Sequence record: LR877332 | Source: Shigella phage vB_SsoM_JK08 | DNA length: 64,000 nucleotides | Direction: 5' to 3' (one strand) | Shown: positions 30,858 to 39,386 of the stretch, in pieces | Layout: the number at the start of each line of letters is the position of its first letter | How positions within the stretch are numbered: the first letter of the stretch is position 1 | Notes under the pieces: model-generated | What the model was told of the DNA's origin: nothing | Database searches by the model: none | The model's input: the letters and a program-made list of their open reading frames with translations, nothing else | Translations under genes and position numbers: made by a program

Positions 30858-31274
30858 TTAAATGTAAATATTTTTGCCGTAATACTTATACCAGTGTGGC
30901 TTCATTAAAATTTTTTCATCGAGTCGTTGTTGACTCAACTTAATAGCTGATTTGCATGGATTATAATCATTTTTCCATTCTACTGGAATATCGCTGATGT
31001 CAGGAACTTCAGTATCTTTTATACTGAACCCGCGTTTTAAGCATTCCGTTATAATGTCCGATTGACGCTTTCGCAAAAATTCTAACTTATCGTAAAAGAA
31101 AGTAACATGACCAGAACCTAAAATAAATTTAGAAGATATTTTAAAATCTTTAACGCGCTTACCGTTTGCCACATGCTTACGAACTATACCAAAAACACGC
31201 GGCAATTCACGGTATTCTGCGATTAAATGTTGATCAGCAAGTTCAGATACTAAAGTCAAATTAATACGAGTCAT
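30858..31274 (-). CDS. denV: endonuclease V (pyrimidine dimer DNA glycosylase)
   Basis: 138-aa ORF matching recalled T4 endonuclease V over full length. Confidence 0.9.
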
Positions 31275-31333: not shown

Positions 31334-31864
<531 letters not shown>

Positions 31865-33149: not shown

Positions 33150-33544
33150 CGTGATTCCTTAACAAATTTCATAATTTCATCAAATTCATACATATCTAGC
33201 TTAAGCTGGTGTTCCTTTTTAATCTTTTTACACTGAGCTTTCCAATCACGTACACGTTTACGATAATGTCTTCCTTGATACCAGTATCCTACCCAATTTA
33301 CGGGTACTAATAAAAGTGGAACTATTAATGGAAGAATTAGCATTAACACAAGTATTTCGCCAGAATCAATATCAGTCATAACATCTAAAACACCTCCAAT
33401 AATCAATAGAATTACAAATGATATGAGTATAACAGGACCTATTAACACATCAGTAGAAATTATCTGACGCTTTGGTTCATACTTCACAGGTTTACTTGGA
33501 AGGTATAGTGATGGTTTTGACATATTCTCTACATTCCTTAACAA
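33131..33544 (-). CDS. membrane protein
   Basis: 137-aa ORF with TM segments. Confidence 0.5.
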   Translation of the reverse strand: MLRNVENMSKPSLYLPSKPVKYEPKRQIISTDVLIGPVILISFVILLIIGGVLDVMTDIDSGEILVLMLILPLIVPLLLVPVNWVGYWYQGRHYRKRVRDWKAQCKKIKKEHQLKLDMYEFDEIMKFVKESRCKSQN

Positions 33545-34106
33545 ATTTTTCTAGTAATAAATCACTTTCAAAATTGGGATTTTCTACAAATTTATCAAAA
33601 AGATCATCAACAATAGTTAAGATATTCTTTTTACTAAGAATACGTTTATTTTCATGCTTCGTTTCAGAATCAACTATAAGAGTAAAGAAATATTTCTTGC
33701 CCTGAAATTTTACAGTAGTATCAATATAAAATAAATTTGACTTTTGTAAATTACGTTTAAACCATGCGTCACTTAAACTATAAACACCGAGATAATCAAA
33801 ATCGTCGTTTAAATAACAAACCGTCCATTCAGGAGAAATGAAATCAGTAAATTCAACATCAAAATCACACGTCAATGAATGAATTGATTCAATACTGTTA
33901 ATGAGTATTCCAGGACGTATTAAAGACTTTTTACCTCTAGAAAATCTTCCGGAAAGGCTTTCATCAGTTTCATATGAAGACCCCCAATAGTAATTACGTC
34001 CTTCTGCCATGCGTTTAAGAGCATTTAGTAATTGGTCTGGAACATCAACCTGTCTTTGGAACTCTTCAAACATTGAATTGAAATCACTTTGCATTTTCAT
34101 TTTCAT
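33492..34106 (-). CDS. hypothetical protein
   Basis: 204-aa ORF (start may be internal; overlaps downstream by 53 nt). Confidence 0.5.
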   Translation of the reverse strand: MKMKMQSDFNSMFEEFQRQVDVPDQLLNALKRMAEGRNYYWGSSYETDESLSGRFSRGKKSLIRPGILINSIESIHSLTCDFDVEFTDFISPEWTVCYLNDDFDYLGVYSLSDAWFKRNLQKSNLFYIDTTVKFQGKKYFFTLIVDSETKHENKRILSKKNILTIVDDLFDKFVENPNFESDLLLEKFVKECREYVKTITIPSK

Positions 34107-34147: not shown

Positions 34148-34741
34148 TTATTTCAGAGAATTAATGTATTCCTGAACATCGGCAGAGGTAGTTTCAACCC
34201 CAGAAATATTACCGTTAAAGGTTTCAACTCGAGCAAGGGTATCTTCAATATCAACCTTAGTCAGTGCTGCAATTTCAACTACATCATCAGCAGTACTAAT
34301 TCCAAGGGCATTTGCTGCACGAGTTTCACGGATATATTCCAATTTAACCGCAAGTTCTTGACGAGCATCATCTAACTCAACTACTTTCTTGGCGATTTCA
34401 ATTCGCATTTCAGCATAACCGTCAGCCTTAGTAGTCAACTGCTCAGCTGTTCGACGATATAGTAAACCGAGTTTAGCATGCATTGTTACATCTTGGCCTT
34501 CGGAAAGAAGTTTACGAATTTCACGCTCTTTTGATTCGGCCTGTCGATTCTTTTCGATAACAAGTTCACGAATACGTTTTTCTTCGTTAATAGATTTAAC
34601 AGAAGCAGTTTTTAGATCTTTAATTTTATCAAGTAGTTTTGCTGCTGCAGCAGTATACTGTTCTTCGACAGATAGATTTTTAGCCATAGCAGAACCAAGT
34701 TTAGTGCGAATAAACTCAACAATTTTCTTCAGTGTGTTCAT
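34148..34741 (-). CDS. coiled-coil protein with PspA/IM30-like architecture
   Basis: 197-aa ORF, continuous heptad-rich helix; composition resembles phage-shock protein A family. Confidence 0.4.
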
Positions 34742-34842: not shown

Positions 34843-35106
34843 TTATTTCATATTATTGAAATATTCTTCTGCGATTTCGTCGTTATCATGGTAAACTTTA
34901 GAAGACAGTTTAACATAACCTTCTGCTGTGAACATATTAATCACAACTTTTACAGTATACCACTGACCGTCTTCATTACCCATTACTGCGTAAGTTTCAA
35001 ACATCGGATGATCAGGACCGATAACTTTAATATCATTCACTGTACGACCGAAATCTTCTGAAACGCATTTCATAAAGAAGTTGAACAGTTCGCCGTAATT
35101 ATCCAT
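34843..35106 (-). CDS. hypothetical protein (88 aa; start refined downstream of promoter)
   Basis: ORF-track 34843..35226; early promoter -10 at 35150 lies inside the long ORF; ATG 35106 has a GGAG RBS. Confidence 0.45.
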   Translation of the reverse strand: MDNYGELFNFFMKCVSEDFGRTVNDIKVIGPDHPMFETYAVMGNEDGQWYTVKVVINMFTAEGYVKLSSKVYHDNDEIAEEYFNNMK

Positions 35107-35149
35107 TTCATTCTCCAAGTTGTTTTCTGTATCAGTAGTTGATAGTTGT

Positions 35150-35178
35150 ATAGTACCATGGAAGAACAGAGATGTAAA
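35150..35178 (-). promoter_or_regulatory. sigma70-type early promoter (-35 GTTTACA, -10 TGgTACTAT)
   Basis: RC of 35173-35178 = TTTACA, 17-nt spacer, RC of 35150-35155 = TACTAT; A-rich UP element. Confidence 0.5.
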
Positions 35179-35302
35179 CAGTTTTGTGAAAAAATTTTTA
35201 GGGAATTCTAGGGCAGGGATGGGCAATTAAAGGATAGGATAATATATTATAAAGGGTATAAACTAAATGATGCCTAGAGAGGTCCAGAAAGGCCTAGATA
35301 CC

Positions 35303-35327
35303 AAAAAGCCCTATCATTTAGATAGGG
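35303..35327 (-). terminator. intrinsic terminator
   Basis: ccctatc-attta-gataggg hairpin with A-run 35303-35307 (U-run on minus). Confidence 0.5.
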
Positions 35328-35335
35328 ATTTAAAA

Positions 35336-35899
35336 TTATTTACCTAGTTTACTTATTATAGCTTCTGCAGCAGCTTTTAGCTTAGATGCAGTGTTAATAC
35401 GATTTTTAATTTCAGTATACGCATCGCCAAGAACATCAAGGCTATCAGAATAAACACTTACACTATTGCGTTCGCTATTTGAAATAGAACCTTTAGTTTT
35501 GCGGTCAAAATCGGTGTACACGTCTTGAAGATCGCGGGCTGCCTTCTTTGCATCATCCAATGCATCAAGAGCTTTATTCAAAGCATTAACGTATTTTTTA
35601 GTGTCGAACATATTCTTAGAAATTTTAACAGGTGCGCGTTCAGGAGTAGCTAACACAGATTTAGGAACCTGAGCGCCAGATGCCAATTTCTTAGAAATTT
35701 TGAAAAATGCTTTATTGAATTTATTTTCTTGACTCATTGTAAAAGAACTATTATCGATGTTGTACATTTCAATAGCTTTAGCTTTCCACTTAAGAAAATC
35801 GCCGCGGTCTTTTGGGTCCAATTGGAAGAATACTTTAGTAAGATCTGCTTCAGATGGTAATTTTGCTGCTTCGGTTAAAAATTCGGCATAGGTTTTCAT
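35336..35899 (-). CDS. internal-protein-like protein with capsid-targeting N-terminus
   Basis: 187-aa ORF; N-terminus MKTYAEFLTE resembles the T4 internal-protein targeting sequence MKTYQEFIAE with an LxE protease-site motif. Confidence 0.55.
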   Translation of the reverse strand: MKTYAEFLTEAAKLPSEADLTKVFFQLDPKDRGDFLKWKAKAIEMYNIDNSSFTMSQENKFNKAFFKISKKLASGAQVPKSVLATPERAPVKISKNMFDTKKYVNALNKALDALDDAKKAARDLQDVYTDFDRKTKGSISNSERNSVSVYSDSLDVLGDAYTEIKNRINTASKLKAAAEAIISKLGK

Positions 35900-35989
35900 T
35901 TAAAATCCTTGAAATAATTTATCGGTTGGTTATTAATTATTTATTACTTTGTTACTATCCGTAACAGCGTTATCCGAGTGATTCAAACT

Positions 35990-36016
35990 AAAAAGCCCCA
36001 ACCTTTCGGTCGGGGC
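35990..36016 (-). terminator. intrinsic terminator (GAAA-loop hairpin + U-run), copy 1
   Basis: gccccaacc-tttc-ggtcggggc with A-run; identical copy at 36545-36572. Confidence 0.6.
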
Positions 36017-36024
36017 TAAGAATG

Positions 36025-36498
36025 TCATTTGATTTGTTTAGCAGACCAAATGCGGTCTTTAATAATTTTTTGGATGTCTTCAACATACTCAAGAGAGTGA
36101 ACATGTGGATTATCTTTGAAACTATAAGCACGGGCTAACTTTTGGCCTTCGGTTTTGATTACTAAAAGCTCTTTAAGGATAGCTTCATATTTGGAGATAA
36201 TTCCTTTAACAATATTTTTCTCTTGTGTGACTTTAGGATCTTCTTTAGGAGCAGGTTTACCTGAAGCCTTTGCAAAAGCAGCTCCAGTAGCAACTAAACT
36301 TTTCCAAGCCATACTAACTGCATTCCCTGTAAATCCTTCGGCTTTCATATCACGAGCAAATTGGAATCGTGATTCATCGGAAGCATCTTTATAGGAATAT
36401 TTACCCGCGGCAATGGCAGCTTTTGCAACAGCTTGAATTTCAGTGCTAGATGCTTCATTTAACACCGCTTCATTTAAAAATTGAGTATATGATTTCAT
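36025..36498 (-). CDS. internal-protein-like protein with capsid-targeting N-terminus
   Basis: 157-aa ORF; N-terminus MKSYTQFLNE; late promoter upstream. Confidence 0.55.
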   Translation of the reverse strand: MKSYTQFLNEAVLNEASSTEIQAVAKAAIAAGKYSYKDASDESRFQFARDMKAEGFTGNAVSMAWKSLVATGAAFAKASGKPAPKEDPKVTQEKNIVKGIISKYEAILKELLVIKTEGQKLARAYSFKDNPHVHSLEYVEDIQKIIKDRIWSAKQIK

Positions 36499-36534
36499 CT
36501 TATTTCCTGTTTTAATTCGGGGTTTTAATATACT

Positions 36535-36542
36535 TATTTATA
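36535..36542 (-). promoter_or_regulatory. late promoter TATAAATA
   Basis: RC of 36535-36542 = TATAAATA, about 37 nt upstream of the ATG at 36498. Confidence 0.55.
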
Positions 36543-36544
36543 CT

Positions 36545-36572
36545 AAAAAGCCCCAACCTTTCGGTCGGGGCT
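36545..36572 (-). terminator. intrinsic terminator, copy 2 (ends the tRNA/stable-RNA transcript)
   Basis: same hairpin sequence as 35990-36016. Confidence 0.6.
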
Positions 36573-36579
36573 AAGCCTT

Positions 36580-36885
36580 GCGGCAACCTTGTCGGGGTTC
36601 CACCTTCTAAGGCAAGTGTTTGTACGAAACGCCGGGATTCGAACCCGGTTATTAAGCAGTTGACGCTACTCAATATTTTTAAAAGGCCATATCTCGACCA
36701 TATCCGAACGTTCCGTCAAAAACGCTACTCGGCTTACGGCAAAGATATTTCCTCGAATCGATAATTCGGTGCGCCGTTTCTGCTGTGATATAAGGGGACA
36801 TTAACAAAACATAAAGATTTATTAATACCAGTCCTTAAACAGGGAACATCAGTCCGACGACTTGCCGGTAGCGACCCGGCTTCTT
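36580..36885 (-). ncRNA. candidate stable small RNA region with a tRNA-like T-arm (cf. T4 stable RNA species 1/2)
   Basis: non-coding stretch between tRNA-Arg and the terminator; T-arm-like ccggg-attcgaa-cccgg at 36632-36648 preceded by a 7-nt acceptor-like segment with a near-complement about 150 nt away. Confidence 0.3.
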
Positions 36886-36888
36886 GTC

Positions 36889-36964
36889 TGGTCGAGGCAG
36901 TAGGGATCGAACCTACGACCCAGGACTTAGAAGGTCCTTGCTCTTCCTTCTGAGCTATGCCTCG
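36889..36964 (-). tRNA. tRNA-Arg (anticodon UCU), CCA encoded
   Basis: manual cloverleaf: acceptor cgaggca/tgcctcg, T-arm gtagg-gatcgaa-cctac, anticodon loop CUUCUAA. Confidence 0.8.
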
Positions 36965-36968
36965 TATT

Positions 36969-37043
36969 TGGCGGACGTGATAGGATTCGAACCTATAACC
37001 AATCGCTTAACAGGCGATCGCTCTGCCATTGAGCTACACATCC
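36969..37043 (-). tRNA. tRNA-Asn (anticodon GUU), CCA encoded
   Basis: manual cloverleaf with 4-bp D stem, GG in D loop, anticodon loop CUGUUAA, T loop UUCGAAU. Confidence 0.65.
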
Positions 37044-37047
37044 AAAT

Positions 37048-37134
37048 TGGTGGGGAGTGGTGGAGTCGAACCACCCGAGTCGCAATGACAATGAATTTAC
37101 AGTCCACACCGCTACCTCTACGGGATAACTCCCC
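37048..37134 (-). tRNA. tRNA-Tyr-like (anticodon GUA), long variable arm, atypical D-arm
   Basis: acceptor ggggagt/actcccc, T-arm ggtgg-agtcgaa-ccacc, anticodon loop CUGUAAA; anticodon stem has 2 G-U pairs and D-arm connector is irregular. Confidence 0.5.
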
Positions 37135-37143
37135 AAATTAATT

Positions 37144-37218
37144 TGGTGGCCCTGGGTGGAATTGAACCACCATCTGGCGATTATGAGTCGCTTGCTTGAA
37201 CCTTCCAGCTACAGGGCC
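37144..37218 (-). tRNA. tRNA with CAU anticodon (Met or Ile2)
   Basis: acceptor ggccctg/cagggcc, anticodon loop CUCAUAA. Confidence 0.75.
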
Positions 37219-37219
37219 T

Positions 37220-37295
37220 TGGTGCTGATTGACGGAATCGAACCGCCGACCTTCTCATTACAAGTGAGTTGCTCTACCTACTGAGCTAAATCAGC
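37220..37295 (-). tRNA. tRNA-Thr (anticodon UGU)
   Basis: acceptor gctgatt/aatcagc, anticodon loop CUUGUAA. Confidence 0.75.
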
Positions 37296-37300
37296 AAAAC

Positions 37301-37390
37301 TGGCGGAGGCGATAGGATTTGAACCTATGAGTCGCCGGAGCGACTGCCGGTTTTCAAGACCGGTGCATTAAACCACTCTGCCACGCCTCC
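37301..37390 (-). tRNA. tRNA-Ser (anticodon UGA), long variable arm
   Basis: acceptor ggaggcg/cgcctcc, variable stem gtcgc/gcgac, anticodon loop CUUGAAA. Confidence 0.75.
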
Positions 37391-37392
37391 AG

Positions 37393-37466
37393 TCTCCGTG
37401 GCAGGATTTGAACCTACGACATTCTGCTCCCAAAGCAGACGCTCTACCAAACTGAGCTACACGGAG
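37393..37466 (-). tRNA. tRNA-Pro (anticodon UGG), CCA not encoded
   Basis: acceptor ctccgtg/cacggag, anticodon loop UUUGGGA. Confidence 0.7.
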
Positions 37467-37476
37467 TAAATTAAAT

Positions 37477-37550
<74 letters not shown>

Positions 37551-37555
37551 AAATT

Positions 37556-37642
37556 TGGTGCGAGAAGTGGGACTCGAACCCACAAGGAAATCATTCCGCA
37601 GCATTTTAAGTGCTGTGCCTTTACCAATTTGGCCATTCTCGC
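37556..37642 (-). tRNA. tRNA-Leu (anticodon UAA), long variable arm
   Basis: acceptor gcgagaa/ttctcgc, variable stem ggaa/ttcc, anticodon loop CUUAAAA. Confidence 0.75.
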
Positions 37643-37643
37643 G

Positions 37644-37716
37644 CTGGGAATAAAGGACTCGAACCTTTGCATCCTGGAATCAAAATCCAGTGCCTTACCA
37701 ACTTGGCTAATTCCCA
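37644..37716 (-). tRNA. tRNA-Gln (anticodon UUG), CCA not encoded
   Basis: acceptor tgggaat/attccca, anticodon stem ctgga/tccag, loop UUUUGAU. Confidence 0.7.
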
Positions 37717-38745: not shown

Positions 38746-38991
38746 TTATTTTTTACGAAAAATTGATTTATTTTCTGCTGCCCATTTTTCAATAACTGCA
38801 GCAGGACCAGTAACAACAATTTTATCACCGTAATCTTCTGCGGCGAGTTGACCGAAATTATCTAATGCATCACGAAGAACTCCATGAGGCATTTCACCCA
38901 TTTTATCTTTCTTGCCAGTGTAAATAAACTCAACTTTTACATCAGCAGTTTCAGCAATAAATTCTTGGTAAGTTTTCATTTTGATTTCCAT
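38746..38991 (-). CDS. internal-protein-like protein (capsid-targeting sequence MKTYQEFIAE)
   Basis: 81-aa ORF; residues 5-14 MKTYQEFIAE match the T4 internal-protein targeting sequence; true start may be the second ATG (38979). Confidence 0.6.
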   Translation of the reverse strand: MEIKMKTYQEFIAETADVKVEFIYTGKKDKMGEMPHGVLRDALDNFGQLAAEDYGDKIVVTGPAAVIEKWAAENKSIFRKK

Positions 38992-39014
38992 TTGGTTTTG
39001 TTTTGATAGGGTAA

Positions 39015-39042
39015 TAGTATCACAACTAAAACCCTATGTAAA
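39015..39042 (-). promoter_or_regulatory. early promoter inside stem-loop cassette (PeSL-like)
   Basis: gtaatagtatcac -10 region flanked by tagggt/accctat; -35 GTTTACA; shared downstream block gtaaacaactttgtgaaattattttaa. Confidence 0.5.
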
Positions 39043-39055
39043 CAACTTTGTGAAA

Positions 39056-39313
39056 TTATTTTAAATCTTCTAATCGTTTCTTCATCTTAGAACCATTTTT
39101 AGCAATTTCTCCTGCATCGGAGCATAATGCTAAAAGTGCTTTAACTTTAGTTTGGTCTCCTTTAAAAGATGAAGGATCGACCGCAGCAGCAAGTTCTTTA
39201 ATACGAGAGAAAAGACGCTCAGCTTCAGCTAAAGCCATTCCAAGCTTTACTTCCATACCGTGGGAAGATTCGGTGATAGTAGTTTTTGTAGCAAACTCTT
39301 TGAAAGTTTTCAT
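39056..39313 (-). CDS. internal-protein-like protein (N-terminus MKTFKEFATK)
   Basis: 85-aa ORF with targeting-sequence-like N-terminus and ITE motif. Confidence 0.5.
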   Translation of the reverse strand: MKTFKEFATKTTITESSHGMEVKLGMALAEAERLFSRIKELAAAVDPSSFKGDQTKVKALLALCSDAGEIAKNGSKMKKRLEDLK

Positions 39314-39344
39314 TTTTATTTTCCTAATTAATTTTGATGAGGTA

Positions 39345-39372
39345 ATAGTATCACTACCTCATCAGTATGTAA
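39345..39372 (-). promoter_or_regulatory. early promoter inside stem-loop cassette (PeSL-like)
   Basis: gatgaggta-atagtatcac-tacctcatc inverted repeat around -10; -35 GTTTACA; near-identical to the cassette at 39001-39060. Confidence 0.5.
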
Positions 39373-39386
39373 ACAACTTTGTGAAA

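Follow-up and report, generated by a model that had tools for sequence, protein, structure and literature searches.

Two neighbouring genes of Shigella phage vB_SsoM_JK08, ORF-A and ORF-B (hereafter A and B), very probably encode packaged internal proteins and, judging from their sequence, make up a third, overlooked internal-protein locus. Our best explanation, to which we assign a probability of about 0.72, is that both products are prohead-targeted proteins made late in infection from a recombining locus, with leader docking, cleavage by gp21 and ejection as predicted steps. The internal-protein reading is well supported: the experimentally critical residues of the leader are retained, and across genera the leader stays the same in kind where the bodies diverge. 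It is further supported because the proteins are basic and similar in size to IPII and IPIII, the genes have late promoters, and an ortholog of B is listed in virions of phage fD1.

The characterised injected internal proteins of T-even phages (Ip1, Ip2, Ip3 and Ip6) all disarm type IV restriction and so contribute to host range. Two internal-protein loci are described in the literature, which reports no such genes elsewhere in T-even genomes. The two are the ipI locus and the denV–e locus (PMC2839356), and Silas et al. 2025 likewise recognise two. The A/B locus lies between e.8 and rnaC, outside both, which we counted against the internal-protein reading, though packaging does not require either position. 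The absence of A and B from T2, T4 and T6 plausibly explains why the locus went unnoticed, and every database record of the two proteins reads "hypothetical". The kind of protein is already known; what is new here is a different regulatory cassette, unusually broad conservation and an unannotated locus. The family is found in most sequenced Tequatrovirus genomes and in several further genera, and some of the phages that carry it have been proposed for therapeutic use; its members are ready candidates for new counter-defence or head-assembly factors.

Leaders and protein character of A and B

The window, i.e. the whole stretch of 64,000 nucleotides that was analysed, was assigned to Tequatrovirus and is T4-like. 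Over bases 35200–36700 it matched two Tequatrovirus phages, Yersinia phage PYps35T and Escherichia phage a15, at 100% identity and a third, vB_EcoM_G9062, at 99.8%. A (35336..35899, minus strand, 187 aa) and B (36025..36498, minus strand, 157 aa) were found exactly where the first-pass annotation had placed them, with the N-termini MKTYAEFLTEA and MKSYTQFLNEA. The T4-like capsid-targeting start that it had proposed was also present on both: Tyr4, Phe7, Leu8 and Glu10 are retained, followed by Ala. In A, the putative leader MKTYAEFLTE (35870..35899, minus strand) has a predicted gp21 cut after Glu10 (LTE/A, the slash marking the cut). The leader of B, MKSYTQFLNE/AVLNE/A (36454..36498, minus strand), contains two consecutive [LI]xE sites, the second LNE/A lying five residues beyond the first. 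Both leaders are thus closed by [L/I]-x-E and a small residue, which is the gp21 cleavage context and marks predicted processing sites.

Amber-suppression work on IPIII assigned targeting mainly to positions 4 and 7 and processing to positions 8 and 10 (PMC9026906), and the first 10 residues of IPIII suffice to package foreign proteins (PMC9026906; PMC3012670). The targeting residues at IPIII positions 4 and 7 are present in A and B as Tyr4 and Phe7. A six-frame pattern scan of the window recovered the leader pattern in A, B and Ip6 only, and listing the ORFs of the ipI locus added Ip5 with its longer, IPI-type leader (MKTFKEFATKTTITE). As a rough estimate, the chance that a random protein begins with MK[TS]Y.[EQ]F[LI].E is ~1e-8.

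After removal of the first ten residues, A is predicted to be a protein of 19.6 kDa with a pI of 9.5 (32 Lys+Arg, 23 Asp+Glu). It would be nearly equal in size and charge to T4 IPIII* (20.4 kDa, pI 9.65, 33 Lys+Arg, 23 Asp+Glu); mature B is predicted at about 16.1 kDa and pI 9.4. T4 IPII and IPIII (Ip2 and Ip3) share with A and B a 10-residue MKTY.EF[IL].E leader, the [IL]xE/A site and a basic character (mature pI ~9.4–9.6), and they too are non-core genes with terminator-like hairpins at their flanks. They differ in their unrelated bodies, in their locus (denV–e as opposed to e.8–rnaC) and in having GmrSD variants as known targets. For either protein we rejected direct homology to IPI, IPII, IPIII, IpIV, IpV or IpVI, as the leader alone matched. 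The dN/dS ratio was 0.09 for A and 0.04–0.12 for B; since the overall range was 0.04–0.15, both are real genes under constraint.

No direct homology between A and B was detectable, also with hhalign. The AlphaFold2 model of B was all-helical (pLDDT 77), and that of A (pLDDT 58) was too poor for a fold search. The models suggest a common all-helical plan in which a Pro/Lys-rich linker joins a small helical domain to a long helical hairpin. With the B model as query, Foldseek matched nothing in PDB and BFVD beyond generic helical bundles and orthologs of B itself, and scans of A and B against Pfam, NCBIfam and PADLOC gave nothing above threshold. Hence, neither fold nor family searches on A and B provided a functional hint. 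Sequence similarity to the characterised type IV restriction inhibitors was confined to the leader, and no fold match was significant. Ip1, Ip2, Ip3 and Ip6 are themselves mutually unrelated.

Regulatory cassette and indel states

On the minus strand, in the direction of transcription, the genes run Ip5, Ip6, trna.4, trna.3, trna.2, ten tRNAs (36889–37716), the rnaD and rnaC homologs, B and A. On the 3' side of A follow e.8 (34843–35106, minus strand; 87 aa in its annotated and conserved form), e.6, the remaining e-series genes, nudE, the lysozyme gene e (31334–31828, minus strand) and denV (30858–31274, minus strand). The first-pass annotation had reported ipII and ipIII as missing between denV and e, and the 59-bp gap between these two genes in the window indeed holds no ip gene. 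Just upstream of e, two TATAAATA motifs (31842–31849 and 31855–31862, minus strand), 13 nt apart from start to start, have the appearance of tandem late promoters. The mechanically called ORF of e.8 (34843–35226, minus strand) has a TTG start and 127 aa, the conserved 87-aa protein starting at 35106, and an early-type promoter (TTTACA...TACTAT with TG) lies in the e.8 region at 35178–35150.

A T4-type late promoter, TATAAATA, is present on the minus strand ahead of B (36535..36542, 36 nt upstream of the ATG), in agreement with the first-pass annotation. It begins 2 nt past the T-run of a terminator (TTTTT-AG-TATAAATA). As a bare motif, TATAAATA was about as frequent in the window as chance predicts (13 occurrences, 11 expected). 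Its position ahead of the first gene of the locus, however, is kept in 10 diverged loci, eight with TATAAATA and two with AATAAATA. A has no consensus late promoter, only the variant AATAAATA, a late-promoter-like motif matching at 7/8 positions (35938..35945, minus strand), 38 nt upstream of the start codon. This putative promoter had been missed before and is kept in all three A loci examined.

The same GAAA-tetraloop terminator hairpin stands on both sides of the 157-aa gene, as had been claimed, in copies identical over 34/34 nt (35987..36020 downstream and 36542..36575 upstream, minus strand). The stems, of 10 bp each (35994–36017 and 36549–36572), are part of hairpins that fold at about −20 kcal/mol, with z = −4.2 and −5.1 against shuffled sequence. 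The downstream copy terminates B. The upstream copy simply belongs to the tRNA/rnaC operon as its terminator and is shared with T4, which the first-pass annotation had overlooked together with the separate terminator of A. The latter (35303..35327, minus strand, or 35309–35327 in a narrower delimitation; stem CCCTATC/GATAGGG followed by CTTTTT; −11 kcal/mol, z −3.1) is weaker than the GAAA hairpin and different from it, and it marks where the insertion, seen against T4, ends on the e.8 side.

A segment of ~1.2 kb (35328..36539) is absent from T4 according to blastn, and a sub-segment of it, the A cassette (~35328–35986), is absent from fD1. The e.8–rnaC interval of T4 is non-coding and consists of one copy of the GAAA-loop terminator followed by GGTATCTAAG; in the window, the matching flank GGTATCTAGG comes after the terminator of A. 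Three states were thus observed. In T4, T2, T6 and PST, the terminator leads directly into the flank, with neither A nor B. In fD1, the order is terminator, TATAAATA, B, terminator and flank, with B only. In vB_SsoM_JK08, it is terminator, TATAAATA, B, terminator, AATAAATA, A, the second type of terminator and flank. The edges of the indels coincide with the GGGCTTTTT ends of the hairpins, and recombination between the terminator copies would yield the T4 state. The proposal that the duplicated terminator marks one copied cassette was therefore not upheld: B is flanked by the tRNA-operon terminator, which was there before, and by a copy of its own, and the T4 type looks like the one-copy state.

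We also considered A and B as a replacement for ipII and ipIII and found no general rule. Phage phiE142 carries both A and IPIII, so A is no general IPIII substitute; in Mosigvirus- and Dhakavirus-like contigs, IPIII stands beside B-type or 205-aa genes, while B and IpIV occur together in fD1 and a further genome (L014).

The cassettes of the classical internal-protein genes are built differently. An early-type promoter (GTTTAC-N17-TGnTAnnAT) under an AT-rich inverted repeat precedes ipI, ipII and ipIII of T4 as well as Ip5 and Ip6 of the window (examined at 38980–39055 and 39314–39386, minus strand, and upstream of the three T4 genes in L002), and none of these five genes had TATAAATA upstream. 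This arrangement agrees with the published elements of internal-protein genes (PMC2839356). The A/B module instead combines a GC-rich terminator with a late promoter, and we counted this against the internal-protein reading. Ip5 (PST IpV; 39056–39313, minus strand, 85 aa) and Ip6 (PST IpVI; 38746–38979, minus strand, 77 aa) share with A and B the genome and the kind of leader, and packaging is presumably alike. Unlike A and B, they are small, maturing to 70 and 67 aa, sit in early-type cassettes and lie on the opposite side of the tRNA array. The PeSL cassettes of RB49 and phi1 resemble the A/B module as terminator-plus-promoter composites that flank accessory ORFs, with indel boundaries inside hairpins. 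Their promoter is sigma-70-like and early, whereas here a late TATAAATA is coupled to a GAAA-tetraloop tRNA-operon terminator.

Family relationships and distribution

Both proteins matched phrog_2280 (function unknown), A at E = 2e-53 and B at E = 3e-60. In hhalign comparisons with a 205-aa family, A scored a probability of 98% (97% without leaders) and B 97.5% (95% without leaders), although the low-complexity linker may inflate the score of B. A HMMER search of 1.8 billion proteins matched A to a 204-aa relative at E = 2.6e-6, and no close relatives of A were found beyond Tequatrovirus. These profile comparisons place A and B in one conserved family, within which they have diverged deeply. 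They are thus not new relative to each other, as both are profile-linked to the 205-aa/phrog_2280 family; the first-pass annotation had spoken of novel internal proteins.

In Dhakavirus, Mosigvirus, Karamvirus, Kanagawavirus and Marfavirus, the 205-aa family fills the corresponding slot immediately behind the tRNA array, so that leader-bearing members follow the tRNA array in at least five genera besides Tequatrovirus. Each gene in the slot is preceded by a hairpin and a (T/C/G/A)ATAAATA motif. Relatives with 25–55% identity in the body retain leaders (MKFKEFLAE, MLNFKEFIAE, MLNFNEFITE, MLKFKDILTE), and most 205-aa-type relatives have a second [LIV]xE/A site, comparable to the double site of B. 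Besides the slot and the hairpin plus late-promoter module, the 205-aa family has in common with A and B the succession of leader, helical domain, Pro/Lys-rich linker and helical hairpin. It differs in the linkers, which are short in A and B, and has been annotated as hypothetical only. Long Ala/Lys/Pro-rich linkers, e.g. KPAKPAKAPVAKPAAQPKVAAPKPTPKPEP, were seen in 205-aa-type relatives on three contigs (L010, 6260–6877; L015, 3001–3657; L017, 3001–3642). Their composition resembles histone H1 tails and suggests contact with DNA inside the head. In the phage collection, a close e.8 gene was present in ~531 records, A in 164 and B (at least 90% identity) in ~365.

Classical internal proteins are hypervariable, whereas this family is under strong purifying selection and is conserved from genus to genus, which we counted against the internal-protein reading.

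Packaging, essentiality and possible roles

In the mechanism that we propose, A and B would be made late, from their own late promoters, alongside the head proteins. Docking on the gp22 scaffolding core is predicted to occur through the N-terminal leaders, which the prohead protease gp21 would then cut off behind Glu10; in B, a second cut behind Glu15 is probable. Once mature, the two basic proteins (~19.6 and ~16 kDa) would stay with the DNA in the head and be ejected into the next host. The slot just downstream of the tRNA/rnaC operon would be fixed across T4-like genera, with cassettes gained and lost by recombination at the terminator hairpins.

Published virion data bear on B. The fD1 ortholog g140 (98% identity to B) stands among the particle-associated proteins, in a permissive list that contains 137 of the 277 phage proteins and 672 host proteins and also names DenV, lysozyme, NudE and thymidine kinase. 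In the virion data of Klebsiella phage ValerieMcCarty, the part of the supplement examined held no peptides of a B-family homolog, and the "internal virion protein" of that phage is an IPII homolog. The fPS-90 paper comes without proteomics. Altogether, the description of A and B as internal-protein-like genes stands as regards the leader, the late promoter, size and charge, and is joined by the fD1 listing, whereas the idea of a copied cassette fell and A turned out to be without a consensus promoter.

The transposon data for Bas37 (phage KarlGJung), which lacks ipII and ipIII, set A apart from B. The Bas37 gene bas37_0243 is identical to A (187/187) and bas37_0244 nearly so to B (153/157). 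In the HIDEN-SEQ reference library, the B ortholog was non-essential, with 29/34 TA sites hit, and the neighbour e.8 was hit at 23/23 sites (10.1101/2025.11.20.689424). The A ortholog was hit at 1/48 sites and scored "Essential", a call that the authors do not discuss (10.1101/2025.11.20.689424) and that we wish to bring to attention. It poorly fits a dispensable accessory gene and was counted against our reading. Against true essentiality, A is missing from many viable relatives, and, the A cassette being a natural indel, a library stock that lacked it would mimic essentiality. Two isolates, OE5505 and G4500 (L037 and L038), each have a 1-nt deletion in an A gene that is otherwise 100% identical, leaving two annotated ORFs. 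The deletion lies inside an A6 run in OE5505 and outside any homopolymer in G4500, and the two may be either true loss-of-function variants or sequencing errors.

Several other explanations were weighed against our preferred one. It is very improbable that A and B go unpackaged and act in the cell late in infection, their common 5' end being a relic of cassette recombination or a conserved translation-start module. Such a module is suggested by a 42-nt repeat of 74% identity at the two 5' ends, ribosome-binding site included, and recombination at conserved flanks is known to reshuffle T4-like cassettes (PMC2839356, PMC4122927). However, the conservation is at the protein level, exactly at the functionally mapped residues, in genera whose surrounding DNA is unrelated; the [LI]xE-Ala cleavage context is retained, and late-only expression suits prohead assembly. 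A minor but real possibility is that the proteins are packaged and mainly structural, as helpers of the core or scaffold or in neutralising DNA charge as IPIII does, rather than inhibitors of defence. The fixed position and purifying selection across genera would fit such a role, as would the long linkers of the relatives, the basic character of every member and the equivalence of A and IPIII*. Loss of IPIII halves the rate of head assembly and lowers burst size to 40% (PMC9026906), and the "Essential" call comes from a phage without ipII and ipIII. On the other hand, T2, T4, T6 and PST assemble normally without the family, the B ortholog is dispensable, A co-occurs with IPIII in phiE142 and is frameshifted in two natural isolates, and IPIII itself is a GmrSD inhibitor (PMC12373910).

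That A is an injected antidote to a barrier present in E. coli K-12 or encoded by the phage itself, and conditionally essential in Bas37-type genomes, seems unlikely. The contrast in TA-site hits between the A ortholog and its neighbours e.8 and B speaks for it, and the same library worked for Ip6, which was needed only in the presence of McrBC. The silence of the authors on the call, the possible artefact of a stock without the A cassette, the frameshifts in OE5505 and G4500 and the growth on K-12 of close relatives lacking A speak against it. We consider it similarly doubtful that A is a truly indispensable capsid-targeted accessory of an ancient third locus lost by T2, T4 and T6, whether as an injected antidote to a barrier still left in restriction-deleted E. 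coli K-12 or as a lineage-specific component of the head core. In view of the unexplained "Essential" call, head assembly or DNA handling, or a conditional antidote function, is for A as good a candidate as counter-defence.

With A and B taken as injected internal proteins, an anti-defence activity, which the first-pass annotation had considered plausible, would follow by analogy. Ip1, Ip2 and Ip3 are inhibitors of GmrSD type IV restriction enzymes, each of a different one (PMC12373910), and Bas37_0260, to which Ip6 of the window is identical (77/77), inhibits McrBC of E. coli K-12 (HIDEN-SEQ preprint, 10.1101/2025.11.20.689424). The analogy is stronger because all four of these proteins inhibit type IV restriction. 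Published plating data for T2, T4 and T6 are silent on A and B, as these phages lack both genes. Counter-defence is our best guess for B, which, by analogy with Ip1, Ip2, Ip3 and Ip6, may be a dispensable, host-specific factor acting in the first minutes of infection. The B ortholog was unchanged (log2FC −0.11) in one Bas37 host comparison within the part of the dataset covered (10.1101/2025.11.20.689424). For A, head-core assembly or DNA handling, possibly with counter-defence in addition, would be about as likely.

For other genes of the window, the Bas37 data suggest possible host-dependent roles. The ortholog of Ip5 (0261) had a log2FC of −2.09 in one comparison of K-12 with a clinical isolate, a hint that its role depends on the host. 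Strong depletion was seen in one HIDEN-SEQ comparison with a clinical isolate for 0240 (log2FC −6.49) and 0239 (log2FC −3.62), the orthologs of e.6 and e.5. The homologs of these two genes in the window (e.6 at 34148–34741, minus strand, phrog_1203, function unknown; e.5 at 33492–34106, minus strand) are, from this depletion, possible counter-defence candidates.
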